From the IMG/VR virus record IMGVR_UViG_2565956719_000013: a DNA stretch of 41,123 bases. One strand, written 5' to 3'. This DNA is from a virus (Duplodnaviria > Heunggongvirae > Uroviricota > Caudoviricetes). The notes beneath the pieces are model-generated. The model was not told where the DNA came from, did not search any database, and was given only the letters and a program-made list of their open reading frames with translations. Numbering within the stretch: position 1 is the stretch's first letter; every line of letters starts with the position of its first letter. Below, one piece after another: positions 1,290 to 28,897 of this stretch. The position numbers and the translations under genes are program-made.

Positions 1290-1772
1290 CTATCTGGTCA
1301 AAGTGTCGTACTGTTTTTCGCAGACTCTTCCGGCTTCGGCTGCCCGGTCAGCATACTCTGCCAGTTGTCTGTTTCTCTCGAGAGATTTGCTGAGCACGTC
1401 GGCAAGCAAAACTCCGGTGTCTGCGGCTGACGACCCAGCGCCGACAATGGCGTTATACTGCCTGAGCTGCTCACGGATGGCAAAGAGTTGTTGCTGCAAC
1501 CGGCCAGCGCTAGCGGCAGCATCAAGAGCATCATTGCGCGCCTGGTCGATCCTCTGCTGAGCTTCACGTTCATTGGTCACTTTCTCCTGTTCGTAGTACT
1601 GACGAACTTTGTCTTCTTCGGCTTTGCGGTCTTCTTCCGCCTGAGCATACCCGGCATCGTACTGGCGACTGCCGTGTATATTCCAGGCAACCACTCCTGA
1701 TATGACCAGAACAGCAAGCACTGCCACGATAAGAAACTGTTTCCAGTATGCTTTTACGAATGCCCAGATCAT
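1290..1772 (-). CDS. Rz-like i-spanin (phage lysis protein)
   Basis: N-terminal TM helix then Glu/Arg/Gln-rich coiled coil; ATGA overlap with endolysin stop; contains an embedded out-of-frame lipoprotein ORF. Confidence 0.7.
1298..1534 (-). CDS. Rz1-like o-spanin lipoprotein embedded in Rz
   Basis: alternative frame inside Rz; [13 protein letters not shown] lipobox signal; Pro/Ser-rich; start chosen at ATGATG 1534-1529. Confidence 0.5.
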   Translation of the reverse strand: MMLLMLPLALAGCSNNSLPSVSSSGSITPLSALGRQPQTPEFCLPTCSANLSRETDNWQSMLTGQPKPEESAKNSTTL

Positions 1773-2398
1773 ACCGCCAGCACCTTACTGGCAGTGATGT
1801 ACCGCGCTCGCCGGTCGTCGATGCCGTTCCGGCCACCATTGATAATCAGAGTTACACGTGCAATATCGCCGGTATACTTCATGCATCCTTTGCTGGCGAA
1901 GAACCACGCCGCGCTACGAGCCGCATATCCGTCCTGCGCCAGCAGTTCAGGGCTCTCCAGCAGGTCAACCTTCAGACCGTTTCCGCAATCACGATAGTTA
2001 TTCAAACCGGTAATCTGGATAAGTCCGCGCCCTCGGTAATTCCAGCCATCACCAGGGGCATTGTTCCCCATGCGTTTGCTGTATACCAGATTTGCGATCG
2101 CGCGCTGGCGCTCAAGTGGCAATGGTGGTTCACCAGCACGGCGCCCCAGTGCATTAGCCTGCCCCTGAGTGAGACGCCCAGCCCGAACGAAGTTAGCCAG
2201 TCCGCTGACACTGTAGTTGAAATTCTCCTGCAACCTGGTGAAGCCCCCAGACTCATGCCCGACTTGAGCAATAAACATTGCCTGATCTTCTGCTTTGCTG
2301 ATACCAAACTCTTTCATCGCAGAAGTTATATGCGAGAACCAGCGTGCGGCCAGTGCCTCGCTGATACCAGCAGCTCGCTGGAATTGTTTAATCTCCAT
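1769..2398 (-). CDS. endolysin, glycoside hydrolase family 19 (chitinase-like) type
   Basis: ATG at 2398 with GAGG RBS; motifs [12 protein letters not shown] and GRGLIQITG recalled as GH19 lysozyme signatures; lies between holin and Rz. Confidence 0.75.
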
Positions 2399-2696
2399 GT
2401 TTAGACCTCGATACTTTAAAAATTTGAACGACGTTACCGCGCGTTTTAATAACCGCAGCCAGCATGACAGCGTTGATAATGACCTCAGATAAATCCACAG
2501 CCATTGGCGTACGTAACCAGATTGCATAGGCGACTCGAACAGGAATACTGGCCGCAGCAACAATCAGGAAATAAGCAAGCCATCCTCCCCACCTTCGATG
2601 TTGAGAGCCGTTACGCCGGAATGTGACAACGCGAATTGCTATGCCAGTGCAAATAACTGCATTAGTGATAAGCAAAAAAAACTCATGCGTTACCAT
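2388..2696 (-). CDS. small membrane protein of lysis cassette (holin/antiholin-like)
   Basis: GGGGAGA RBS; 2-3 predicted TM helices; overlaps holin end and endolysin start. Confidence 0.5.
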
Positions 2697-3087
2697 CGTC
2701 TTTTCTCCCCGGAATTAACTCGCGTGGATTATCGGAACGGTGATAGAGCCATATACCAATACGCACAGCGACAATTGCTGACACGAATGCGCCTGCAGAG
2801 AAAACAATCCCTTTTTCAAAAGAGTCCTGCGTGATGGTAGGGATCAGGCTGGCTATGCCGATAAGAATTGATGCTGCTGGTTTGTAAAAGAGAAGGCCGC
2901 AAAGAAAGCTGAGCATCGACAGGAGCACCCGGCGACGGATGGGGTACTCTACTGCAGAGGTAACAAAAATTACCGCCCCAGCCAAAGCCCCTAAAGCAAC
3001 CTCCGGAGGGACACCTGCAATAACTGCAGCAAGAGAACCAAAACTAAGCAACTGATTTAATTGCTCACTTGTTACTTGAGCAGACAT
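2683..3087 (-). CDS. putative holin
   Basis: AGGAGA RBS; several hydrophobic helices; charged C-terminus; first gene of lysis cassette. Confidence 0.55.
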   Translation of the reverse strand: MSAQVTSEQLNQLLSFGSLAAVIAGVPPEVALGALAGAVIFVTSAVEYPIRRRVLLSMLSFLCGLLFYKPAASILIGIASLIPTITQDSFEKGIVFSAGAFVSAIVAVRIGIWLYHRSDNPRELIPGRKDDGNA

Positions 3088-3370: not shown

Positions 3371-3397
3371 CCCGCAATATTTTGCGGGCTTTTTTTT
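3371..3397 (+). terminator. intrinsic terminator oriented for + strand only
   Basis: stem CCCGCAA (3371-3377) / TTGCGGG (3382-3388), loop TATT, T8 tract 3390-3397 overlapping tailspike stop; no T-tract in the minus orientation. Confidence 0.5.
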
Positions 3398-6300
3398 AAC
3401 GTTCTTCCAGAGACTGAACCCGCTCTTTTATCTTATCCATTTCTCTGCGCTGCCATGCTGCCTCGATATAGAATAAGAGATCAGGTCTGACCCCCCATCT
3501 AGATCCTGCTGGCGTTATTTCAACGCGCTCAATGATGTCTTCTATTACCATCACTGGATTATCATCCTCATCAACAATGATGCTCCCGTCATTATCAGTC
3601 AGCGGCATTTCCCTTTGGCCAGTAATGACGTCATCATATACTGCGGGATAATCGTCATAGCAAAGAAAGGCATAGCGGCATGTTGTGCTTTCTTCTTCCA
3701 TGAGTCCGTGAGAAATAAGAACATCACGAAGTTGCTGCGCGATTACACCATGATGTATCCTCGCCCCTTCTTCCCCCTTTATAGCGACAGCGTTCAGCCA
3801 TTTATAAGCGATATACCTGACGTCACCCCAGGCATCCAGCAATGTTTCGTCAGGAGAGACCGGCTCTGTCTTTAATGTTCCGTCACTGGTAACCACAGGA
3901 TTGGAGCCAAGATAAACTATCGAGAACCTGTTTCCCGGACCACCAAGAGCATTTACATTATCAAGATAAGGTTTAACATCTCCGTTCTCAAAAAGATGTT
4001 CGAGTGCGTTATATACCGCGCGACGTGGAGTACTGCTTCTGGAACCATGCAACGTTATCATTGCACCATCTGCTGAAGACGTTGTTTCACCGCCGCTAAC
4101 GATTAATCTCTGAGCGGTAACATCATCAGACGGTACTTTCTTCGCAATAATGGCGTAATTACCCTCAAGTTTGACTTCCGCGCGAACTTGTCCTGATGTA
4201 CCTGCATGGACAGTCAGTGACTGGACGGCAACATCATCTGTGAAATCAACGGGTACAGGAACCGTCCTCACGCCTGACGTCGACATAAAAGTAGGAAGCG
4301 TTCTGTTAGGAGTGGCTCCGTAGACAAAATCCCTTGAAACAAATTCTTCCTGTTTAATTTTCACCCTGAAACAATACAAATCAGCCGGGTGACCATCGTG
4401 AACATAAGGATATTTTCTGTTGTTATCCCCTATGCTCCATGGGTTTAGAAAGTCTTCCCCACCGAAAATGTAGTACAGCCAGTTGTCTTTGATACAAACT
4501 GAACCAACACCAACCGCAGAGTTAACTATTCCGCCCTGATAAATCTGATCAGTAACATTAACCCACTCTACATTATCCAGACTCCACTCATTGACGTTAA
4601 CTCTGGTCATAAATGTTCTTGGATAATTTCCTGCATAACGGTTATCAGGTTCTCCTCCTTCCCACTCACCAAATGCGCGCTCACTGCCAAAAATAATCAG
4701 CTCATCGCCAACTTTGGCAAAAGGAAGGTTTGAGTGATGAACATTATTTGGGAAGCGAAGAGAATTCCATGATGTACCTAAATCAGAGCTTCTGTGCAAT
4801 GAACTACCGGGTTGAGTACTTAATGTCCCCCTGGTCGTCAGATACAGAATGCCATCATAATATTTTACACATGGCTCAGATGCATTCGCCTCATATTCTG
4901 CAGGTATGCGTCTGCGAACAAAGCTACCAGGAGAACCGAAAGCATCAGAGAAATAGAGTATCCCAAGCTCGCGTGGACCAATATCACCATTATGGTAGCC
5001 AACAGCAAAACTGTTATCGCTAATCGTCGCAAAACTGTGAATCTCAGTAACAGGAGTGCTTCCGTCAACAAAAGAAGGAATAGTTCCAAGACTGGTTTTT
5101 CTCCATGGTGACGAGTGAAATGATGTACCAAAACTCCAGTATCTACCCTCGTTATTCTGATCCACATCCTGGGTATTTTGCGTCGTAACTGTAAAAGTAT
5201 TTTTATCAATAACAGTAGTCACCGTCATATTCCCGGTAACACCTGTAACACCAGAGTTTGAGAAGTTGACAAAATCACCAGCAAATAATCCGTGATCAGT
5301 AATGCGAATATAAGCGACTTGCTGATTTGCTGCTTTCGTTATACCACCATAAACGCGAAGGCTGCGACTCATTGGGCGATCCCACAACTCTGCAACCTGC
5401 AGTTTATTTCCGCTCACGGTCCGCGTCTCAATTACAGCAAAAAGGCGATTTCTGACAACCCCCATACTCATGCAGTGATAGTTAACTGTGGGATAGTTTT
5501 CATGTAAATCTGTAAGCCATTCCGGCGTTGTCCAGGTCTTCCCGTCATCTCCTGAGCGAACCCATGCAACATGGAGGTTATTTACACCATGGCGGTCTCC
5601 AGCCATAAAAGGCGCATAGATGACATTGTCATATACAAACGTTTTATCCTGCGTCCAGGCGTTGTACCACGGTGTATCTGTAATTTTAAATAACTCTCCC
5701 TGGATAAAATCTTCAGAAGCATAAAAAAGAGGCTGGCCCGGTATTCTCTCAAATAAAAAACGAGCATTTTTAAATCGACTGACATCCGGAAGAGTTGATA
5801 CTTTAAAAGTAAGCCCTAATCCGTCAATTTTATAACCTGGAGATGAGGCTTCAAGGCACGCGCTTATTGCAGTGGAATCGTCATTTATACCATCACCAAC
5901 AGCTCCAAAATCTTTGGGGCTAATAGCATCACGCATTTTATCCTGGAACGTTCGGTACACAGCCCCAGAACCATACTGAATAAACCAACCAAAACCACCA
6001 ACAACCCCGGCGATTGCAGCATCGACATAATTACGCATTGAGCGATTATTTACAGCGTCCTGCTCAAATGATGGATCTGCAAGGTTAGAAATTTTGTTTT
6101 GCTTTGCATCGTAATATTTTGCAAGCAAAGATGGTTTCATCAATGCACGTCTGAACCACCCAAAACATTGCTGGATCAGCATCGTCAGGTAGTCAAAGGC
6201 ATCTTCATGCACTTCGGGGAAAAATTTTCCCTGATTGCGAAGGTCTGTCTCCTGCACTACATCAAGCACACGATCTATCGTAATTCGCCATCCAGTAGCA

Positions 6301-6515
6301 AGCGGAGACGGAAGAACCACAGAACCGCCACTATAAGTGCCCGCCCCAGTTACCGTATAACCGGTATCCAGAACCAATTCTGTTACGTTCCCGTTCAGGT
6401 CAGACACCTGAACAACCAGGTCTGATTTTCTGAAAATTCGAAAAGTATACGGAAACGACGTCGTAACGCCGTTACCGGTGTATTCGTTGTGGTCAACTTC
6501 GGTTGAGACCGTCAT
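3396..6515 (-). CDS. tailspike: T7 gp17-like N-terminal anchor, Asp-box domain, C-terminal intramolecular-chaperone-type domain; candidate endosialidase
   Basis: 1039 aa; GGAG RBS; N-terminal pattern resembles T7 tail-fibre N-domain; two Asp-box motifs (SGDDGKTW, SSDLGTSW); C-terminal SDGTLK...IAQQ... region resembles S74-type autocleaving chaperone domains. Confidence 0.85.
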   Translation of the reverse strand: MTVSTEVDHNEYTGNGVTTSFPYTFRIFRKSDLVVQVSDLNGNVTELVLDTGYTVTGAGTYSGGSVVLPSPLATGWRITIDRVLDVVQETDLRNQGKFFPEVHEDAFDYLTMLIQQCFGWFRRALMKPSLLAKYYDAKQNKISNLADPSFEQDAVNNRSMRNYVDAAIAGVVGGFGWFIQYGSGAVYRTFQDKMRDAISPKDFGAVGDGINDDSTAISACLEASSPGYKIDGLGLTFKVSTLPDVSRFKNARFLFERIPGQPLFYASEDFIQGELFKITDTPWYNAWTQDKTFVYDNVIYAPFMAGDRHGVNNLHVAWVRSGDDGKTWTTPEWLTDLHENYPTVNYHCMSMGVVRNRLFAVIETRTVSGNKLQVAELWDRPMSRSLRVYGGITKAANQQVAYIRITDHGLFAGDFVNFSNSGVTGVTGNMTVTTVIDKNTFTVTTQNTQDVDQNNEGRYWSFGTSFHSSPWRKTSLGTIPSFVDGSTPVTEIHSFATISDNSFAVGYHNGDIGPRELGILYFSDAFGSPGSFVRRRIPAEYEANASEPCVKYYDGILYLTTRGTLSTQPGSSLHRSSDLGTSWNSLRFPNNVHHSNLPFAKVGDELIIFGSERAFGEWEGGEPDNRYAGNYPRTFMTRVNVNEWSLDNVEWVNVTDQIYQGGIVNSAVGVGSVCIKDNWLYYIFGGEDFLNPWSIGDNNRKYPYVHDGHPADLYCFRVKIKQEEFVSRDFVYGATPNRTLPTFMSTSGVRTVPVPVDFTDDVAVQSLTVHAGTSGQVRAEVKLEGNYAIIAKKVPSDDVTAQRLIVSGGETTSSADGAMITLHGSRSSTPRRAVYNALEHLFENGDVKPYLDNVNALGGPGNRFSIVYLGSNPVVTSDGTLKTEPVSPDETLLDAWGDVRYIAYKWLNAVAIKGEEGARIHHGVIAQQLRDVLISHGLMEEESTTCRYAFLCYDDYPAVYDDVITGQREMPLTDNDGSIIVDEDDNPVMVIEDIIERVEITPAGSRWGVRPDLLFYIEAAWQRREMDKIKERVQSLEER

Positions 6516-6619
6516 GTTAAATCTCCAGATAGTCGCAGCACCCGTTGCGCCGCATATCTGGTTATTCTATTACCTGAAAAACCACATATGGATAGAAAGA
6601 CTGTAAATACGAATAGATA

Positions 6620-6634
6620 TTACCTTTCAGGTAA
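6620..6634. promoter_or_regulatory. operator-like dyad TTACC-N5-GGTAA
   Basis: ATTACCtttcaGGTAAT, perfect dyad between tailspike start (6515) and SOS-box gene. Confidence 0.55.
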
Positions 6635-6671
6635 TTTGCAAAACGTGCTGGATAGCAAACAAATTATTTGC

Positions 6672-6691
6672 TACTGTATAAATATACAGTT
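6672..6691 (+). promoter_or_regulatory. LexA (SOS) box
   Basis: TACTGTATAAATATACAGTT; CTGT-N8-ACAG core at 6674-6689, ~20 bp upstream of ATG 6711. Confidence 0.7.
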
Positions 6692-6710
6692 ATTGCATGG
6701 AGAAGATAAG

Positions 6711-6968
6711 ATGCAGCAGTATCACTATCCACTGGAAGACGGATTTACCGAAAGGATTCACACGCCGGGAGGCGTCAGGTCACTGGTGGAGGGATCGCAC
6801 TTGATGAAATTACTCCGGGATCTCGATAAGGATGGATTTAATGTCGATGGCCCACTTGCCGAACTGACTGCACTGATTAACTACGTCACCAGCTCACAGA
6901 TGTCTATGCAGGATCTGCAAACACATCTCGACTATTGTGCCGAACAATTACGAAAACAAACCAGATAA
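6711..6968 (+). CDS. SOS-regulated small protein, paralog of antirepressor C-terminal domain (candidate antirepressor)
   Basis: GGAGAAG RBS; 85 aa; ~35-40% identical by eye to C-terminal ~80 aa of the 7284..7994 product (shared GV, LM-LL, DG, AELT, QTH positions). Confidence 0.6.
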   Translation: MQQYHYPLEDGFTERIHTPGGVRSLVEGSHLMKLLRDLDKDGFNVDGPLAELTALINYVTSSQMSMQDLQTHLDYCAEQLRKQTR

Positions 6969-7014: not shown

Positions 7015-7104
7015 ATTTACATCGCACTCCTCTTGTGCCATAGTAATCGGGCACTGGCAAAATCCAGTGCCGGGATTGGCGTCCCGGGTTACTAAGTGGC
7101 GCAT

Positions 7105-7127
7105 ACCACGCCAGACGTGGTTTTTTT
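7105..7127 (+). terminator. intrinsic terminator/attenuator in antirepressor leader
   Basis: stem ACCACG (7105-7110) / CGTGGT (7116-7121), loop CCAGA, T7 tract to 7127. Confidence 0.55.
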
Positions 7128-7283
7128 ATGCGTTAAGCACAGCTATATCCGAATTATGGTGGGCTGGGCAGGGGTCCGAAAGGACGCCGGTACCACTTAG
7201 GCCGGTACGCCAACCTTGTCCAGTTCACCACCAGTAATTGGCGTTGCGGTGGTGATTAAAATCACTAAGTGGAGATAACCACC

Positions 7284-7994
7284 ATGGCTAATGCTCAAAC
7301 TGCCATCTTCAAATTTGAATCTGTTAACCCTATCCGTTCCATCATTATCGATGGCCAACCATGGTTTGTAGCCCAAGACGTTTGTAGTGCGCTGCGTATC
7401 CAAAACGTCACCCAAGCACTTGAAAAACTGGATGATGATGAAAGGTCTATGTTCAACATAGGGCATGAACATCGTGCAATTTTTGACAGCCGAGTAAAAG
7501 AGATCAACATTATCTCCGAGTCAGGCCTCTACACACTGATCCTCCGCTGCCGCGACGCAGTGACACCAGGCACTATCCCCTACCGCTTTCGTAAATGGGT
7601 TACAGGTGAGGTTCTTCCTCAGATCCGCCGCACCGGAAGTTACATTAAAAACTCGCTCCCGCAGGAAGAACGCATAAAGATGGTTGCCGACCAGGTAGCC
7701 AACGCCACGGCGTCAGCAGTAATGCAGGCGATGAAGATAGAGAACAAAACCTACAGTGCCCCACTGAAGCCCGGCTACCGTAGCCTGATTCATTCGCCGT
7801 CTGGTGTTCTCGGCCTGACGGAGAACTCACTGCTGATGAATCTGCTGAACCAGTTACAGGACGACGGGCACGACGTATCGGGCGCGGCGGCGGAGCTGAC
7901 CACCATGTTCTGCTACATCGTCGGTGTGAGCAAATGCCTGCGTGATATCCAGACCCACGCGGAGTACATCAACGACAAGGCAGGGTTCTTCTGA
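7284..7994 (+). CDS. antirepressor with N-terminal Bro-N domain
   Basis: ATG 7284 with AAGTGGAG RBS; N-terminus FKFESVNPIRSIIIDGQPWFVAQDVCSAL matches Bro-N pattern; C-terminal domain paralogous to 6711..6968 product. Confidence 0.7.
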   Translation: MANAQTAIFKFESVNPIRSIIIDGQPWFVAQDVCSALRIQNVTQALEKLDDDERSMFNIGHEHRAIFDSRVKEINIISESGLYTLILRCRDAVTPGTIPYRFRKWVTGEVLPQIRRTGSYIKNSLPQEERIKMVADQVANATASAVMQAMKIENKTYSAPLKPGYRSLIHSPSGVLGLTENSLLMNLLNQLQDDGHDVSGAAAELTTMFCYIVGVSKCLRDIQTHAEYINDKAGFF

Positions 7995-8139: not shown

Positions 8140-8772
8140 ATGAGAACAAATACAACAAGAAAAGCGATGCCATACATTATCCCAGAAGCAGATTTCGATA
8201 GAAAACTGAACATGTCTGAGAAGAACACTAGTCACACCGAAAGCTACTTAGCGAAAGGTGTGGTTGATTTCGTTCTTCCGGGATTCACAACACCTTATGG
8301 TTATCGCCTTGTAAAATCTTGTAATGGCGATCATTACAGAATGATTACTACCAGCGATACTCCAGAAACGGTGTATGCGGTTAAGTTAATCTTTCGGGAA
8401 GATATCGTCGAAGCCAAAAGAACATGTACGCAGATCATGGTATGGCGTACGCCTAATGTTATTCATGACCGTGCTGTTCATGGTTTGCCTCAGATTTTTT
8501 TTCAGTTCTTCCTAGAGCAATATGCGATCGTTGTATCTGATGAGCAACAAACAATCGATGGGAGAAGATTCTGGGAAAGAATGATTTCTTGGGCTATAAA
8601 CACCCCGGGATATAATGTATACGTTTCAGATGGCTCTGAAGAAGATAGACCTCTTAGCTTCATGACATCATGGGATGATTTCTATAGCCAGTGGGCTGAT
8701 TTCTGTTGGGGCAGTGATAAAGATGTGCATACCCACAGACTACTGGTTATAAGCAAAGATAAACTGCATTAA
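8140..8772 (+). CDS. hypothetical protein, 210 aa, orphan accessory gene
   Basis: GGGAGGA RBS; own upstream dyad and downstream terminator; no motif recognised. Confidence 0.65.
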   Translation: MRTNTTRKAMPYIIPEADFDRKLNMSEKNTSHTESYLAKGVVDFVLPGFTTPYGYRLVKSCNGDHYRMITTSDTPETVYAVKLIFREDIVEAKRTCTQIMVWRTPNVIHDRAVHGLPQIFFQFFLEQYAIVVSDEQQTIDGRRFWERMISWAINTPGYNVYVSDGSEEDRPLSFMTSWDDFYSQWADFCWGSDKDVHTHRLLVISKDKLH

Positions 8773-8777
8773 TAGAA

Positions 8778-8798
8778 GCCCGCAGCGCGGGCTTTTTT
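8778..8798 (+). terminator. intrinsic terminator
   Basis: GCCCGC-AGC-GCGGGC hairpin followed by T6. Confidence 0.7.
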
Positions 8799-8870
8799 GT
8801 GGACGAAACAAAAGTCAGTGCTACACTCATTGACGCCACATTGAGGTGGCTTATAGATGGAAATGTCACA

Positions 8871-9032
8871 ATGAAAAAAGCATTTGCTGCACTGTTCGTT
8901 TTGTTGTCTCTGGTAGCTTCAACTCAGGCCTTTGCCGGTCGTTGTCAGCACGACAGCGATACCGCCGCTGACGGCTCCCGCTGCGGTGGGCGTTCTGCGG
9001 ATTCCCGCCCGGGCGGCGGTGGCATTCGTTAA
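8871..9032 (+). CDS. small secreted Cys/Gly-rich peptide, hypothetical
   Basis: ATG 8871; signal peptide MKKAFAALFVLLSLVASTQAFA; 53 aa; weak RBS. Confidence 0.3.
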   Translation: MKKAFAALFVLLSLVASTQAFAGRCQHDSDTAADGSRCGGRSADSRPGGGGIR

Positions 9033-9054
9033 AAACAAGGCCGCGAAAGCGGCC
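9031..9054 (-). terminator. intrinsic terminator ending the leftward late operon
   Basis: GGCCGC-GAAA-GCGGCC hairpin (9039-9054) with T-tract in minus orientation (A5 at 9031-9035 on + strand). Confidence 0.5.
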
Positions 9055-9055
9055 T

Positions 9056-9067
9056 GTGACATGTCAC
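9056..9067. repeat. 12-bp palindrome GTGACATGTCAC (copy 2)
   Basis: perfect palindrome overlapping TGA stop (9064-9066) of 9064..9360, 1 bp from terminator hairpin. Confidence 0.9.
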
Positions 9068-9360
9068 GTTCCTTTTCTGAATGATAGCCGTTCGAAAAAT
9101 GATGACATTCCACCGCAGACAATAGCAAAGATGATCCCACCAAAGAAGAGAAGGCCAGCCTGCCACCACTCCCACCGCCATACATCCACAGCACCAACCA
9201 TACCAACAATCGCTCCAACAAATGGAATATAGCTCACGATGAAAGCAATGGGGGCTGCAATTATCCAGTGCAATCCCCACCATGATTCAAGCCCAGCCAT
9301 AATTGCTGCCAACTGAAAAAGGCCAACGACGATATAAACAATGAATCCTATCGCTTGCAT
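9064..9360 (-). CDS. small multi-pass membrane protein, hypothetical
   Basis: AGGTGA RBS; 98 aa, 3-4 hydrophobic helices, Trp-rich; last gene of late operon. Confidence 0.55.
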   Translation of the reverse strand: MQAIGFIVYIVVGLFQLAAIMAGLESWWGLHWIIAAPIAFIVSYIPFVGAIVGMVGAVDVWRWEWWQAGLLFFGGIIFAIVCGGMSSFFERLSFRKGT

Positions 9361-9372
9361 GTAGTCACCTAT

Positions 9373-9546
9373 TTACCCAGTAAAAATCAGAGGCCTCCCC
9401 TCAATAAGGCTTGCAACAAGAACTATTCCCTGCACAACAAAGATGAACCAGCAAATAGCTTGAGTCTGAGGGTTAAGAAAATATTTGTAGCGGTCAATAA
9501 ATAACAACCCACCAGAAATTATCACACTCAAAATAATTAAAAACAC
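9373..9546 (-). CDS. small 2-TM membrane peptide, hypothetical (not in ORF track)
   Basis: GTG start 9546 after GGAAG; 57 aa hydrophobic; stop TAA 9375-9373. Confidence 0.3.
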   Translation of the reverse strand: MFLIILSVIISGGLLFIDRYKYFLNPQTQAICWFIFVVQGIVLVASLIEGRPLIFTG

Positions 9547-9555
9547 AACACTTCC

Positions 9556-12030
9556 TTATTGCGGAGTGACATCCTGAGGTCGCCACCAGTATGTCTGATT
9601 AAACTCTTTCTTCGAACGTTGCTCCATTTTACGCAAATAGCCTGGTGAAAAATACTCCTGCATCTGGTTCAAGATCATATGATCGAGAGCCGCCTTTAAG
9701 TACCAGAGATTCGCACCTGGCATCAAACCTTTCCCCAGCTTCACCAGATCACCACCAGTCTGCTCACTCTTCCCTTCCACAGCATTTAACGGTATGCCCT
9801 GAGCAATCTTCACTACGTCATCAACCAGACCAGCTACCGGGCCAAGCATCGACGCCAGCGCGCCGCTTCCGTACCTAGTGTGATCTGACAATAAAAAGTC
9901 ACCGTAAAGGCCAAGGCCACCACCTTTCAGTAGAGCACCAAGCCAGAATTTTGCGGCACCTTCTCCTGTCATCTCTCGAGGATTACGACCAGACGCAAGG
10001 TCGTTAAGTTGCTGCGACAAAGCGCCAAGAATGGTCGTACTGGCAATAAACGTCGCAATATATGCCGCACGCCCACCAGCAGACGGCATACCCATAGCGC
10101 GTGACCAGTGACGCATAACAACCGAGATAGGGAACGATTTAAACAGGAAAACACGTCTCGTTAATTCACCTTTCCATGTTCCACGCTGAATACCAGAACC
10201 GGTTATCAGTTGCTCACGTGCTCCCGGTGTAATAACAGCCATATCAACTTCTTCAGTTACGGCACCGAGCAGTTTACGCATTGCCTCAAATTTCACTCGT
10301 TCAGGCTCACCAAGATGTTTAACTGCTGAATCAGGGATACGCATAATGCTTTCCGGTGTCAGCATCGTATTATTACCGTTCCCCCAGTCCTCCTGTTGCG
10401 CCAGCTTCCATACGCTCCAGTCTGTGTCAGTAATCCCTTTGCTTTTCAGGATACGAAAATCAGAGTCATCGAGGCTACGAAGGTCTGGTGTCCGTGACAC
10501 TACTTCTCCCAGGCTTCCCATCATGGTTACGCCATAGGCGCGCTTGTGCGCATCTGACCATGCTGTAAGCCCACTGGCACGCATTACGGCCGTTGCCGCC
10601 CAACGAGACACTGACGGCCCCATATTATCCATCGCCCAGCGGTTAACGCTGCCAAGTAGAGATTCCATCGCCAGACCAGCGCGGCGCGCCCGCGCAAGTT
10701 CTGTACGGTTCGTTGGGTCCATAGCTTCAAGCTGGTTGCGGAATAACTGGTTCATTGGAAGGTTGGTAACCTTCGCAGACAGATACATGGTTCCAAGATC
10801 AGAGAACGATGACAGCAACGCGGATCCGAGTCTGCTGGCAACCAGCCAGTTGCGGATATTGTCAGACCATCGCGCGATGTGCGGATTCGCTACAGGCTGT
10901 GTCTTTCCGGAAATAAAGTTGTACAGATTCTCTGTGTTGTTCGCCAGCCGCTCGACTTTACCGGTTTTACTCGGGTTAGCTGTTGCCGTTTCTGCCTTCA
11001 CCTGATCAAGAAGAGAGCGGAAAACATGATCGGGGTTTGGGCCATATGTTTCCACCAGTGCAATATCTTTACTGATACCTTCAAGGTGACCGACCATGAT
11101 TTCCCATAGAGAGCGATCGCCATAAAGTTGCTGATATTGCAGATAGGAATCTGCATCTTTGAAATGTATCTGTCGTGATGCATTACCACGGTTAGCACGT
11201 GCGCCGGAAATTCGCATTCCGGTATCAGTAAGCTTATTCAGCCCACCAGTAGCGATCGTGTTATAAGCCTCTCCAAGAAATGCAGACAACTCGGCATCGT
11301 TCATCAGTTGTCCATCGGCTCGGGTATAATATTTGCGATCCAGCTTACCTATAACATCGCTAACCCATTTATCTTTTGATACCGCCCCAACCTTTTCCAT
11401 AGAATGATGTTGAGGGATCCCCCAGTTTTCGAGATAGCCAATGTCCCCACCAGCATCATTAAACCGGCGGCGCAGCAGCTCTGTAACTTCTCTCCACGCC
11501 TTAGCACCTTTTCTTGCTTTAGCATTGCCAGTATTTTGCCCTCGCATTTCATATACCAGATCACGCACGCCAGCTTCATCTTCAAACAGGCCAAAAAAGC
11601 GAGGATCAACTGCTTCAAATGCCTCCTGCAATTGACTCAATGCATAATCACGAGTGGCTTTTGTTCTGGACTCAACAGAGAGGAAATTCGATTTACCGTC
11701 TGCATTAAAAGCAATAGTACGGTTAAGAGCGCCAAGTTTCCCATCAGCCCCTTGATAGCTATTGATAAATTTATCCAATCTCTGACGTGCGGCTATAGTG
11801 AGGGCCACACGACGTTTCTTTAATGCCGCTTCTCGCTGTAATTCTTCAGATGCCAATTGTGCTGCTCGATATAGCCGCTCTGATTCGGAAAGTTGTCTCC
11901 ACGACATCGGGTCATCACGAGCAATGGAGCGCATATTTCGATAAATGCGGTCTTCAATGTTCTGTATTTCTCGCGCCGTTAACGTGCGCTGCGCCGCCTG
12001 CTGAACCGCTTGTATACATTCCTGTCTCAT
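9556..12030 (-). CDS. large internal virion / ejection protein
   Basis: 824 aa; GAGAGG RBS; position after two other large proteins matching T7 gp15/gp16-like core order; hydrophobic segments near C-terminus. Confidence 0.55.
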   Translation of the reverse strand: MRQECIQAVQQAAQRTLTAREIQNIEDRIYRNMRSIARDDPMSWRQLSESERLYRAAQLASEELQREAALKKRRVALTIAARQRLDKFINSYQGADGKLGALNRTIAFNADGKSNFLSVESRTKATRDYALSQLQEAFEAVDPRFFGLFEDEAGVRDLVYEMRGQNTGNAKARKGAKAWREVTELLRRRFNDAGGDIGYLENWGIPQHHSMEKVGAVSKDKWVSDVIGKLDRKYYTRADGQLMNDAELSAFLGEAYNTIATGGLNKLTDTGMRISGARANRGNASRQIHFKDADSYLQYQQLYGDRSLWEIMVGHLEGISKDIALVETYGPNPDHVFRSLLDQVKAETATANPSKTGKVERLANNTENLYNFISGKTQPVANPHIARWSDNIRNWLVASRLGSALLSSFSDLGTMYLSAKVTNLPMNQLFRNQLEAMDPTNRTELARARRAGLAMESLLGSVNRWAMDNMGPSVSRWAATAVMRASGLTAWSDAHKRAYGVTMMGSLGEVVSRTPDLRSLDDSDFRILKSKGITDTDWSVWKLAQQEDWGNGNNTMLTPESIMRIPDSAVKHLGEPERVKFEAMRKLLGAVTEEVDMAVITPGAREQLITGSGIQRGTWKGELTRRVFLFKSFPISVVMRHWSRAMGMPSAGGRAAYIATFIASTTILGALSQQLNDLASGRNPREMTGEGAAKFWLGALLKGGGLGLYGDFLLSDHTRYGSGALASMLGPVAGLVDDVVKIAQGIPLNAVEGKSEQTGGDLVKLGKGLMPGANLWYLKAALDHMILNQMQEYFSPGYLRKMEQRSKKEFNQTYWWRPQDVTPQ

Positions 12031-23340: not shown

Positions 23341-23637
23341 TCACTCCTGTTCACTGGCCTCTTTGGCCATCTTCAAATACTGTTCAGGGCAATGCGCCAT
23401 AACGCGCTGAAACAGTTCAAGCGCCAGATTGCGTTGCCCCTCATTAAATGCCATTGCCATAGCGTCCATCGGTGAGATAGCGGAAAACACACGGCCTTTC
23501 TCCAGCACAGACCAGACAACGCGACGCCCCTGTTCACTGCTCATGACAAAGCGAATGTCATCAATTTCACGCTGCTCCATGTCACGTTGCTTACGGGCGT
23601 TTTCTTCTTTCAGTTGATCGTCTTCGTAATCTGTCAT
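23341..23637 (-). CDS. hypothetical protein
   Basis: 98 aa; ATGA overlap with portal stop. Confidence 0.45.
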   Translation of the reverse strand: MTDYEDDQLKEENARKQRDMEQREIDDIRFVMSSEQGRRVVWSVLEKGRVFSAISPMDAMAMAFNEGQRNLALELFQRVMAHCPEQYLKMAKEASEQE

Positions 23638-25313
23638 TGTGATTGCCCACCCTGACCACTAACTGCATTCGCCATAGCTGACAAAACACTCGGATCCGAA
23701 GTTTTAGCTTCGCTTAGCGTCTTGGCGCCCTGTGCCGCCGCCATCCCCATCGCCATCATTTGTTGCTGCTGTTGCTGCTGTGCCCGTTGCTGGCGAGCCT
23801 GCTCAACCTGTTCCTGCGGAACAATGACGGTTGGAGACACTCCGGACATATCAGCGAATGCATCGATCGCCTGATCAACGTTGAGTTTGTCGAGAGCTTC
23901 TGGTTTCGCTTGCGCAAGTTGACCAATGAAGTTAACCGTGGACGCCAGACTGGACAGGCCGATAGACTTCTGCGCCTGAGCCATGACGGAAATGTATTCG
24001 ACCTTCAGGGGCATACCTTCCATCACGTCTGGCGGTGGCGGCAGCATGTTTTTACGCACCATCATCGAGAAAGAGCGGTCAATGAGAGGATTAAGACATT
24101 CGTCGTTCAGACGCTCCAGAACCGGCCCCAACATCAGAAGTTTTTCTTCTTTCATTTCGATCACCGCTTCAACAGGCATCGAGCGGGTATTGATGTTCTG
24201 CAACATCATGAACAGATCGACAAAGTAGGCGCTGTTAATGATTTGACGAGTGTCCTGAATGTCTGCCACCAAATCTGCTGTACTGGGGTTAACCAGATAA
24301 GCAGGCCTGAAACCATCCTGACCAGTAATCTGATCGATATACGTGATGTCGCCAGGAAGAAGGGAGGCACGCTGATTCTTGAGGGAAGTCGGAGCAACCA
24401 TCGGCGGATTGGTGGCTTTATCAATCAACTGCGACTTGCGCTTCTGGAGAAGCTGCAATGCCTTAACAGGTCCAAGCGCCAGCATACCCGGGCATGATGA
24501 TCCATAAACATCTTCGCCGTTAACTTCCCAGCGCGGAGCCATAATTGGAAACTCATCGAATCCGGACTCACGCAACAACTTGTCGTTATCGCCACCAACC
24601 TCGTAATAAACCGATTTGAATGGCTTGTTCTTGCTATCCAGCTTCGATGTATCGCGGTCAATGTTCGGGTAAACCGAATGCATCACTTCAATCCACTTCT
24701 CGTAGGTTCCGCTTTCCCACATGCTTTTTACGGATTCGCTGACGTTATTTAGCCCGAACTCCTGAACAAGCTGACGAACAGTCATAGAGAACTTGCGAAA
24801 ACAGGTGTCCACACTGCCACGAGGTGAGTTAGCCAGGTAGTAACTGCCTATCGGGAATGGCATTGTGCGAATGATGTCCTCGTCATCCTCCAGCACTGCC
24901 ATTGCACCAGTGCTGTATGTGCCGAGGCTTCCGTATAACTGCGGCAGCGACTGATAGAGATTCGACTTATTGAACATATCGTTCATGCGGTTCTGCACCG
25001 CCTCAAGCCACAACTTAACAGGGCCATAATCCATCATTTCAGGATCTGGCGTAGCCAGGCGAAACCACGGACGCGCGGGGCTTGTGATGCCTGACATCAT
25101 GCCGCTGGCGAGAGTGCGCGCCGCCATAGTCCCGGTCGAATCAATAATGCGTGTATTGCGTCGATCGTTACGGTTGGCCTCAGAAGTCAGAAAGCGGGAA
25201 CCACGCGGGTTGATGTAATCACTCAACTCGCGCCAGTGCGGCTCGAACGACTGACGCTCGCTTTCAAGTTGTGCGAACTGTTTGTTCAATCGCTCTTTAG
25301 TTGTTTCCGCCAT
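23634..25313 (-). CDS. portal (head-tail connector), T7 gp8-like
   Basis: 559 aa; GGAG RBS; C-terminal QQQQQMMAMGMAAAQGAKT resembles T7 gp8 C-terminus; follows terminase. Confidence 0.8.
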   Translation of the reverse strand: MAETTKERLNKQFAQLESERQSFEPHWRELSDYINPRGSRFLTSEANRNDRRNTRIIDSTGTMAARTLASGMMSGITSPARPWFRLATPDPEMMDYGPVKLWLEAVQNRMNDMFNKSNLYQSLPQLYGSLGTYSTGAMAVLEDDEDIIRTMPFPIGSYYLANSPRGSVDTCFRKFSMTVRQLVQEFGLNNVSESVKSMWESGTYEKWIEVMHSVYPNIDRDTSKLDSKNKPFKSVYYEVGGDNDKLLRESGFDEFPIMAPRWEVNGEDVYGSSCPGMLALGPVKALQLLQKRKSQLIDKATNPPMVAPTSLKNQRASLLPGDITYIDQITGQDGFRPAYLVNPSTADLVADIQDTRQIINSAYFVDLFMMLQNINTRSMPVEAVIEMKEEKLLMLGPVLERLNDECLNPLIDRSFSMMVRKNMLPPPPDVMEGMPLKVEYISVMAQAQKSIGLSSLASTVNFIGQLAQAKPEALDKLNVDQAIDAFADMSGVSPTVIVPQEQVEQARQQRAQQQQQQQMMAMGMAAAQGAKTLSEAKTSDPSVLSAMANAVSGQGGQSQ

Positions 25314-25961: not shown

Positions 25962-26038
25962 GTGGCATTAGCTCAGTCGGACAGAGCAACCGCCTTCTAA
26001 GCGGTTGGTCGCAGGTTCGAATCCTGCATGCCACGCCA
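25962..26038 (+). tRNA. tRNA-Arg (anticodon UCU)
   Basis: 77 nt; acceptor stem GTGGCAT/ATGCCAC, anticodon stem ACCGC/GCGGT with loop CTTCTAA, T-arm GCAGG-TTCGAAT-CCTGC, discriminator G, CCA encoded. Confidence 0.85.
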
Positions 26039-26241: not shown

Positions 26242-26613
26242 ATGAGTGAAAAAGACATTGAATCTGAAATTCAGGCTAAAGGTTTAGCCGCGCCGCGCGT
26301 TACGCCAGACCATATCGAGAGCATTATTGCTCAGGAGGCATATTTCACAGCAGAAGATGGTGCCTTTGGCGTAGCCATAAAAGCGAAACATACTGGCGGA
26401 GAGGTAAACTACCAGCCGCACGAATCACTTTCTCTGCTGACGTTCTGCGTCCTGGTGCTGCGCAACGGCTTCACCGTCACCGGAGAGAGCGCCTGTGCAA
26501 GCCCGGAAAACTTTGATGCAGAAATTGGTCGGAAGATTGCCCGACAGAATGCTGTAAACAAAATCTGGATGCTTGAAGGTTACTTGCTGAAGCAGAAGTT
26601 AAGCGAGCAATAA
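26242..26613 (+). CDS. Gp49-like small phage protein (N4 Gp49 / Sf6 gp66 family, from memory)
   Basis: AAGGTGAG RBS; 123 aa; C-terminal pattern FDAEIGRKIARQNAVNKIWMLEGYLL recalled for this family. Confidence 0.45.
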   Translation: MSEKDIESEIQAKGLAAPRVTPDHIESIIAQEAYFTAEDGAFGVAIKAKHTGGEVNYQPHESLSLLTFCVLVLRNGFTVTGESACASPENFDAEIGRKIARQNAVNKIWMLEGYLLKQKLSEQ

Positions 26614-26617
26614 CACC

Positions 26618-26629
26618 GTGACATATCAC
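26618..26629. repeat. near-palindrome GTGACATATCAC (copy 3, one mismatch)
   Basis: 5 bp after Gp49-like stop and 4 bp before terminator hairpin. Confidence 0.8.
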
Positions 26630-26703: not shown

Positions 26704-28179
26704 TTAAGCATAGGGATCGTAATCTGTAATGGCCCTTCCCTGCTGGCTTTGCTGTCCTGGTATATTTATGCGTTTCGAGACCGGGAAAGCAAACGTCAGC
26801 AGTAGCGCATCGCCTTTACCCGGCGAACGCCCAAGCCGCTCCTTGATATCTTCCTTCGGTTCGATAACGATTTTACCGTCCACTCGAACTTTGTACTCTG
26901 CCGCCGACAGGTCGTCCGCTGTTTCCTGGTCATCCAGCATGCCGCCCAGCCTCAGCCATGTCTTGCATGAGTTGAACATCTCCCCACGCTTGTTGAGCAT
27001 CTGCGGGTCAGTAGACGCGCCACCGAACGGAACAAGTTGCCATGTACGACCCCAGCCGTCACCGATTGACTTCAAACCGGTTCCGTAACCGAAGTCGATG
27101 AACACCGCGTCAGCCTGATACTGGTCTTCAAAGTCAGCGATACGCTTCGCCATAATCAGATCGTCGGTAGTCTTGTTGCCAGTCCACAGCACCTTACTGT
27201 GTAGCCCCTGCCGCAGGTATATCACCGCGTCATCAACGCCTGAATATGCCGGGTCAACACCGATTATCACCGGAGCATGTGCCACCTGCGCAGCGGTTAC
27301 CACCCGTTTCATTGCCTCGTCAGTAAGACCGGTAGGGATAAACTGCAATTCAGATGCATCAGGGAATATGCCACGCACACGGATTTTAACGAAGTCGCTA
27401 TCTTCCCCGTAGTCATCAACCCATTTCTGCAACTGCTGTTTGTTGGTGCCTTCCACCGTCCTGCTGTCAATCTGCGCAGTTTTCCAGCGGTGTTTGTATT
27501 TGCGGAAACATTCACGGAAACGCCCGGTGTTACGTGTAGGGTTTCCGAAAGCCACCCAGATAATCTCAGTGTCTTCGTCCGTTAGCGCACCCTCGGCAAC
27601 TTCCCACACCAGATCCGCAATGTTCGACGCTTCATCAAATACCACGATGATGCGTTTACGCTCGTTGTGTAGTCCGGCGAATGCCTCAGTGTTGTGCTCA
27701 GACCAGGGGATTGCGTCAGCTCGCCACCGCTTGTCGTGCCCAGGGTCATTGCTGTACATCGCGGTAGCGGTACAGGTAAACCAGTCTTTCGTGATAGCAA
27801 GGTTTGACCACTTGATAATTTCCGGCCAGGTCTTCGTTCGTAGCTGGTTGTCGGTGTTGGCGGTCACCACGACCTTACAATCCTCGCAAGTGGACATGCC
27901 CCAGTTGATCAGCATTGAGATGAATGCGGATTTACCAATACCGTGACCAGAAGCACGTGCCAGCATAAGCGGCTGATATCGCGTCTCTGGATTCTGCAGG
28001 TGATCACGTATCTCTCGGAACGCATCAGCCTGCCACTGACGTGGGCCGGTGGCATGTGCCAGTTCAGTCCCCTCTTCCCCCCATGGGAACGCATAGAGGG
28101 CATAGCCAAGCGGATCGTGAGTGAACCCTGCAATATCCTCGATTAACTGCTCTTCAGGAGATAACGCTGTATCTGTCAC
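26704..28179 (-). CDS. terminase large subunit
   Basis: 491 aa; Walker A-like ARASGHGIGKS and Walker B-like IIVVFDEAS; ATGA overlap with small subunit. Confidence 0.85.
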   Translation of the reverse strand: MTDTALSPEEQLIEDIAGFTHDPLGYALYAFPWGEEGTELAHATGPRQWQADAFREIRDHLQNPETRYQPLMLARASGHGIGKSAFISMLINWGMSTCEDCKVVVTANTDNQLRTKTWPEIIKWSNLAITKDWFTCTATAMYSNDPGHDKRWRADAIPWSEHNTEAFAGLHNERKRIIVVFDEASNIADLVWEVAEGALTDEDTEIIWVAFGNPTRNTGRFRECFRKYKHRWKTAQIDSRTVEGTNKQQLQKWVDDYGEDSDFVKIRVRGIFPDASELQFIPTGLTDEAMKRVVTAAQVAHAPVIIGVDPAYSGVDDAVIYLRQGLHSKVLWTGNKTTDDLIMAKRIADFEDQYQADAVFIDFGYGTGLKSIGDGWGRTWQLVPFGGASTDPQMLNKRGEMFNSCKTWLRLGGMLDDQETADDLSAAEYKVRVDGKIVIEPKEDIKERLGRSPGKGDALLLTFAFPVSKRINIPGQQSQQGRAITDYDPYA

Positions 28180-28885: not shown

Positions 28886-28897
28886 GTGACATGTCAC
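28886..28897. repeat. 12-bp palindrome GTGACATGTCAC (copy 1)
   Basis: perfect palindrome overlapping TGA stop (28894-28896) of the Cys-rich gene, 41 bp before terminator. Confidence 0.9.

Follow-up and report, generated by a model that had tools for sequence, protein, structure and literature searches.

What are two very small membrane proteins doing at the very end of the late operon of a temperate phage, after the last ejection protein and in front of the operon terminator? We examined this question in a stretch of tailed-phage DNA of 41,123 nucleotides (the whole stretch is here referred to as the window), which is a Uetakevirus prophage (epsilon15/phiV10-like) of E. coli. The chromosome of E. 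coli SF-468 is 100% identical to positions 9030..9560, while Escherichia phages phiv142-3, HEMP4 and Phi05_2388 show 97-99% identity to positions 8700..9700. A first-pass annotation had described here a 57-aa protein with two transmembrane (TM) segments and a 98-aa Trp-rich protein, designated p57 and p98 below, and had proposed three candidate functions, namely superinfection exclusion, a late holin-like function, or a part of the ejection channel. That description is partly supported. Both ORFs were found on the minus strand at the expected positions, they follow the last ejection protein and precede a strong operon terminator (9055..9038), and hydropathy analysis recovered hydrophobic segments, of which p57 has two and p98 three to four; among the functions, a place in the ejection channel is disfavoured. 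The features of the locus are as follows.

9556..12030, minus strand: gp17-like ejection protein, 824 aa, phrog_684, the final large gene in the late operon, listed as context and not part of the cargo.
9551..9557, minus strand: ribosome-binding (SD) site AAGGAAG for p57, common to the cassette types; it starts within the gp17 stop codon (9558..9556) and forms the 5' cassette boundary.
9373..9546, minus strand: p57, 57 aa, a hairpin of two TM segments, with a GTG start at 9546; recognized from the ORF, hydropathy and homologues.
9365..9370, minus strand: SD site AGGTGA for p98, from direct reading of the sequence.
9064..9360, minus strand: p98, 98 aa, a Trp/Gly-rich membrane protein of phrog_3075, with an ATG start at 9360.
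9056..9067, no strand: palindrome GTGACATGTCAC, exact over 12 bp, overlapping the p98 stop codon; the conserved 3' cassette boundary.
9028..9055, minus strand: Rho-independent terminator of the late operon, AGGCCGC-TTTC-GCGGCCT followed by TGTTTTTAAC.

The 824-aa ORF matches phrog_684 "virion structural protein" (E = 0) and is the counterpart of epsilon15 gp17 and phiV10 p20, and a T7_gp14-family protein is encoded upstream of it. Epsilon15 gp17 is a homologue of T7 IVP-D (gp16), according to Hardies et al. (PMC4819975). At the other end of the locus, the terminator scan placed at 9055..9038 a 7-bp stem, 6 of whose pairs are GC, followed by TGTTTTTAAC, and the fold has an energy of -19.7 kcal/mol (z = -2.3). 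A convergent gene for a 56-aa signal-peptide protein (8862..9032, plus strand) ends 6 nt short of this stem; the protein belongs to phrog_14503 "membrane associated protein" in the moron category and is elsewhere named "transmembrane anchored protein". The terminator and the 56-aa gene are also present in about 250 further E. coli genomes without p57 and p98.

Several other features of the window were recorded. The tailspike gene (3396..6515, minus strand) encodes a complete K1 endosialidase with the End_N_terminal, End_beta_propel, End_beta_barrel and End_tail_spike domains and a Peptidase_S74 chaperone, which indicates that the prophage of the blood isolate SF-468 is a Uetakevirus specific for the K1 capsule. 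The isrK Hfq-binding sRNA and the C4 antisense RNA (Rfam; 7051..7127 and 7152..7235, both plus strand) lie directly upstream of a Bro-N antirepressor gene (7269..7994, plus strand), and this set looks like a secondary immunity module of the P1 c4/ant-like or P22 immI-like kind, placed between the ejection genes and the tailspike. A 126-aa ORF (6588..6968, plus strand) and the C-terminus of the Bro-N protein have a common domain (phrog_450 / phrog_15539), suggesting partial duplication of the C-terminal module of the antirepressor. Moreover, a tRNA-Arg(TCT) (25962..26038, plus strand) and a 123-aa phrog_322 ORF (26242..26613, plus strand) are inserted on the opposite strand between terL (28179..26704) and the portal gene (25313..23634).

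We analyzed the selection on p57 and p98 with distinct nucleotide sequences from related loci, 49 for p98 and 28 for p57. The median dN/dS was 0.034 for p98 and 0.235 for p57, and in p98 dS is often above 1, yet the protein keeps an identity of about 90%. Purifying selection acts on both genes. In a set of 5.8 billion proteins, p98 has 52 homologues and p57 has 13, and the full pair is present in 205 of 5426 complete E. coli genomes (about 4%), including K1 ExPEC. Low dN/dS, these homologues and the recurrence of the pair together establish that p57 and p98 are genes and not chance ORFs. Prophages of Klebsiella, Salmonella, Citrobacter and Enterobacter also harbour p57/p98 genes. The RefSeq annotation of SF-468 (NZ_CP012625.1; locus positions 4332..4526) contains p98 and omits p57, while p57 is annotated in other genomes.

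As for expression, a consensus promoter scan upstream of p57/p98, in the 3' end of gp17, found none. In the PWM scan the best site, with a score of 8, fell inside p57, and this score was reached 64 times in 82 kb, equal to the background frequency. The two genes, which are tightly spaced and provided with SD sites, leave no space for a promoter between them, the p98 gene beginning 12 nt after the p57 stop codon; in addition, all cassette types begin at the same SD on the late mRNA. Since no promoter is seen and the SD on the late mRNA is the same, the default reading of the sequence is that p57 and p98 are probably co-expressed late with the ejection proteins, and little of either product would be expected in a repressed lysogen.

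We then surveyed what occupies this position in 80 viral contigs, which were picked solely for a gp17 C-terminus 93-99% identical to that of the window, and read the content from the gp17 stop to the terminator. The terminator was found in 76 loci. About 38 of these have p57 and p98, and about 30 have a lone 46-aa protein with two TM segments, similar to phiV10 p21. A small TM ORF with a lipoprotein of about 126 aa (138 aa from the first in-frame start) occupies 8 loci, and the remaining type, a 137-aa lipoprotein, was found in 1. Alignment of the four cassette types showed that they are identical through the sequence that ends in CGCAATAAGGA, which comprises the gp17 stop and the SD, and diverge immediately after it; they are identical again from CGTGACATGTCAC-AGGCCGCTTTCGCGGCCTTGTTTTT, i.e., the 12-bp palindrome and the terminator. 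The sequence between these shared flanks is unrelated, the palindrome GTGACATGTCAC at the 3' edge is invariant in all four types, and the terminator is identical at the end of every type. The cargo is swapped among near-identical phages via recombination in the conserved flanks, and all of its versions are small envelope-targeted proteins, including TM hairpins, polytopic proteins, lipoproteins and signal-peptide proteins.

Some further observations concern the edges of the cassette. A 7-bp repeat, ATGTCAC, occurs at both edges and may be due to chance. The palindrome has a second exact copy at 28886..28897 and a copy with 1 mismatch at 26618..26629, both at module boundaries of the late region: one separates a phrog_536 regulator-like gene from terS where the late operon begins, and one is found just past a terminator-like hairpin downstream of terL. 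The palindrome may act as a site for a regulator or mark a boundary of recombination.

Loci selected by p98 instead of gp17 revealed more variation. The gene preceding p98 may encode a 54-aa or a 103-aa protein with two TM segments, as alternatives to p57, or a signal-peptide protein of 102, 123 or 175 aa, and in Cronobacter the slot upstream of p98 is empty. Downstream of p58 there is a lipoprotein, or a 93-aa TM protein together with p98, or a protein like epsilon15 gp18. In prophages of Salmonella and Citrobacter, p58 is separated from three different downstream cargo genes by a conserved non-coding spacer of about 97 nt (loci L008-L010, 6178..6275); this spacer is missing from the window. 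In epsilon15 itself the 64-aa gp18, with two TM segments, overlaps the gp17 stop and is followed by a terminator, and the viable phage phiV10 has neither p57 nor p98. In short, p57 and p98 are separable from each other and dispensable for a working virion. Because phages with near-identical gp17 hold at least four alternative cargos, the two genes are dispensable cargo and very probably not parts of the ejection channel.

The locus was also compared with the marks of a moron. Presence is patchy with sharp boundaries, since at least four cargos sit between invariant flanks. A terminator is present but belongs to the operon, and a promoter was not found. The GC content is 0.374 for p57, 0.468 for p98, 0.495 for gp17 and 0.493 for the window, so that the deviation in base composition is clear for p57 and marginal for p98. 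In kind, p57 and p98 are ordinary: accessory, moron-like envelope cargo that ends the late operon.

The p57 family is narrow, with 13 homologues at 74-98% identity. The protein is a hairpin of two TM segments joined by the basic loop DRYKYF, and the loop pattern D-x-Y-K-Y-F-L is invariant in the family; we infer that the loop is cytoplasmic. Epsilon15 gp18 and phiV10 p21 resemble p57 in slot, orientation, coupling to gp17, terminator and basic-loop hairpin topology. They are placed in PHROGs 29212 and 7892, while p57 weakly matches PHROG 17645. Homology of p57 to gp18 or p21 was rejected, with an hhalign probability of 0.3%. Sequence searches of p57 and the alternative cargo proteins against Pfam, NCBIfam, PADLOC and PDB gave nothing usable, and literature searches on the accessions, the PHROG and the function of gp18 found nothing.

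The p98 family is far wider. p98 has 7 Trp and 13 Gly in its 98 residues and matches the uncharacterised family phrog_3075 over its full length, with residues 1-98 aligned to all 98 profile positions (E = 5.4e-54). When 1.84 billion representatives were searched with a profile, 745 clusters (50% identity) passed an E-value limit of 1e-3 and 318 passed 1e-10; the 745 come from Proteobacteria, Desulfovibrionales and others. Members are mostly about 95-110 aa long, and some are fused to other membrane domains. The family has no model in Pfam-A or NCBIfam. p98 and 49 representative homologues had no match in NCBIfam, PADLOC or PDB, and at E ≤ 0.01 their sole Pfam match was that of one member to DUF4112 (E = 5e-4).

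Residues Q16, A19, P46, G49, G53, G56, A57, W61, W63, A68 and F72 of p98 are conserved, and the motif reads YIPxxGxIxGxxGA and then WxWxW...A.LLFF. The AlphaFold2 model, based on 28 sequences, has a pLDDT of 89.4 and contains helices 2-28, 32-42, 46-59 and 65-97. Among 50 homologues the number of Lys and Arg per sequence is 0.64 in the N-tail and 2.48 in the C-tail; both Trp-rich loops are acidic and nearly free of Lys and Arg, and the turn at 43-46 is uncharged. From the charge distribution and the model, p98 is predicted to have its N-terminus inside, followed by TM1, a re-entrant helical hairpin on the periplasmic side, TM2 and a basic C-tail inside. The model thus suggests a TM–re-entrant hairpin–TM protein with a glycine zipper.

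Three very divergent podophage lineages have p98 immediately behind the IVP-D gene; besides Uetakevirus, they are a Cronobacter/E. coli type with an 849-aa IVP-D and a Salmonella type with an 833-aa one. Stand-alone genes of the family are found beside integrases, on a small plasmid, or beside umuDC. The family also occurs in ordinary chromosomal contexts, repeatedly adjoining a DUF805 gene, for example between purN and a DUF805 gene, and outside phages the DUF805 gene repeatedly follows the p98-family gene (L192, 6001..6666; L194, 6001..6656). One p98-like domain is fused to DUF805 (P0085), DUF6804 is sometimes a neighbour (L015, L017 and L109), and fusions with RDD or MORN domains occur. The fusion partners DUF805, RDD and MORN gave no functional clue. 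These associations with DUF805, DUF6804, RDD and MORN may reflect a functional link among uncharacterised small membrane proteins.

What, then, would such cargo do? The most likely reading, which we put forward tentatively, is that p57 and p98 are late-made cargo acting on the envelope or excluding DNA entry. Among the three functions first proposed, superinfection exclusion is the most plausible, by analogy only. The two would be independent, dispensable accessory genes at the 3' end of the late (virion) operon of Uetakevirus, in a slot limited by the gp17 stop and the common ribosome-binding site on one side and by the 12-bp palindrome and the operon terminator on the other. They would be translated off the late mRNA alongside the ejection proteins, and their products would enter the inner membrane, where p98 may oligomerise, its acidic Trp-rich loops and its re-entrant glycine-zipper hairpin being exposed to the periplasm. 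The inner membrane would be altered on its periplasmic side in such a way that the ejection proteins (IVP-D type) of an incoming podophage could not build their DNA channel. Protection from superinfection would extend to the infected cell and its debris, and to the lysogen if expression is leaky, and the progeny would be kept from wasting their genomes.

The analogy is with T4 Imm, T5 Llp, Cor, HK97 gp15 and P22 SieA. HK97 gp15, Cor of phi80/N15, T5 Llp and T4 Imm are envelope proteins, either TM proteins or lipoproteins, that are encoded beside genes for the virion or for entry; they prevent the use of receptors or the entry of DNA, and some relatives have them while others do not. Their genes have known promoters or early expression, whereas the cargo of the window has an SD at the end of gp17 and the terminator of the operon. 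No homology of these four proteins to p57 or p98 was found.

SieA of P22 is the closest precedent in position. It is a small inner-membrane protein that blocks injection via the ejection proteins gp16/gp20, and its gene is beside the last ejection gene (PMC10883804). In this temperate podophage the gene is located, as p57 and p98 are in the window, after the last ejection gene and before the antirepressor/tailspike region (PMC10883804); in the window the flanking genes are gp17 (12030..9556) and the tailspike gene (6515..3396). The layouts of the window and P22 are alike in having ejection genes, membrane proteins, a Bro-N antirepressor controlled by C4/isrK, and the tailspike. However, P22 sieA encodes 164 aa and is located on the strand opposite gene 16 with its own promoter, while p57 and p98 use the strand and the mRNA of the late operon and no promoter is seen. 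p98 was rejected as a SieA homologue (hhalign probability of 0.24% against P22 SieA), and the SieA motif FxRYPxEAxxFNK is absent from both p57 and p98.

Exclusion is favoured by the cassette structure, by the purifying selection, by the tight gene spacing with SD sites and no promoter in between, by the decoupling of p98 from the gp17 alleles together with its placement after IVP-D genes, by the SieA precedent, and by the Trp-rich loops, which are periplasmic according to positive-inside analysis. Counted against it, p57 and p98 have no homology to SieA, to PADLOC defence models, or to Pfam, NCBIfam or PDB entries, and at E up to 1 PADLOC gave no match for p57, p98 or the four alternative cargo proteins. 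There is also no convincing sigma-70 promoter for expression from the prophage, the best site occurring at background frequency. A dN/dS of 0.03 for p98 is very strong conservation, unusual for an arms-race protein, and the p98 homologues located among ordinary chromosomal genes suggest that the membrane function is a generic one.

In another reading, the cargo serves lysogenic conversion or host fitness and has nothing to do with phage exclusion, p98 being a phage copy of a widespread small bacterial membrane protein that partners DUF805 and has a physiological role in the membrane, and p57 being another moron. The 745 clusters at 50% identity, which span Proteobacteria, Desulfovibrionales and other groups, agree with this, as do the members that adjoin or fuse to DUF805, DUF6804, RDD and MORN proteins, the stand-alone copies beside integrases or on a small plasmid, the moron-like low GC of p57 (0.374) and the extreme purifying selection on p98. 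We nevertheless consider it unlikely, given that there is no visible promoter and the late mRNA is used, and that three divergent phage lineages repeatedly have p98 immediately behind an IVP-D gene.

Somewhat more doubtful is the proposal that p57 and p98 are late channel, holin-/antiholin-like or membrane-depolarising proteins, with p98 as a glycine-zipper pore that tunes lysis timing or the membrane potential. Class II holins and pinholins share with p57 and p98 a small size, multiple TM segments, a glycine-zipper-type motif and late expression, and the position in the late operon with apparently late-only expression is as this proposal would have it. The TM–re-entrant hairpin–TM model with its conserved PxxGxxxGxxGA motif also fits, and there is a weak similarity to Phage_holin_5_2 (E = 0.027). 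However, the latter reaches 15.1 bits against a cut-off of 29.2 bits, and none of 50 members of the p98 family matches any holin family. p57 and p98 differ from holins in that they are not beside the endolysin, and a complete lysis cassette with its own holin pair (Phage_holin_8, Phage_holin_3_7 and a GH19 endolysin) is located 6 kb away at 3087..1769. Close relatives such as phiV10 do without p98, and a lethal pore is unlikely for a family whose members also occur in non-phage, housekeeping chromosomal loci.

For a channel, the only recurring theme among the fold matches of p98, all of them non-significant, is the pore domain of K+ channels. The modules of KcsA and MthK (M1-P-M2) resemble the predicted p98 in the order of an N-in TM segment, a re-entrant hairpin at the outer face, a second TM segment and a C-in tail. 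Nevertheless, the matches have a TM-score below 0.4 and E above 3, and neither a significant fold match nor a TxGYG-type selectivity filter was found in p98. It may even be that p98 represents a new family of about 95-aa TM–re-entrant-hairpin–TM glycine-zipper proteins forming a channel-like oligomer, captured repeatedly by temperate podophages and expressed from the cargo platform, as a new means of excluding IVP-D-type DNA entry or of controlling late membrane energy; we regard this combination as rather improbable.

It is very unlikely that p57 and p98 are components of the ejection machinery, its chaperones or immunity partners, whether as virion proteins or as membrane proteins that handle gp17. 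Translational coupling to gp17 and the recurrent place after the IVP-D gene speak for such a role. On the other hand, gp17 at 93-99% identity works with wholly different cargo, even a lone lipoprotein, and phiV10 is viable with neither p57 nor p98; the pair is missing from about half of the loci that have the same gp17, unlike what conservation together with the other ejection proteins would predict. Furthermore, p98 alleles that are 93-99% identical adjoin gp17 alleles only 24-27% identical. p98 therefore does not co-evolve with the ejection protein, which is a strong argument against the first-pass suggestion of a part in the ejection channel, and the occurrence of p98 homologues outside phages argues in the same direction.

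Finally, that the two are non-functional or mis-called ORFs, as their shortness and the absence of p57 from the SF-468 RefSeq annotation might suggest, is scarcely credible with dN/dS of 0.03 and 0.24 and many synonymous changes, an SD site in front of each gene, and length and motifs kept across genera.

If exclusion by p57 and p98 holds true, they would add to the exclusion factors for epsilon15-like phages, as new members of very small size. This would have a bearing on host range in phage therapy, as such prophages are common in E. coli, Klebsiella and Salmonella. The sharply bounded cassette, with its ribosome-binding site, palindrome and terminator, is a natural site in which to find envelope-active phage proteins and to engineer cargo. 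Moreover, the p98 family is a sizeable portion of membrane-protein dark matter tied to DUF805, and a phenotype in the phage could be the first functional handle on it.
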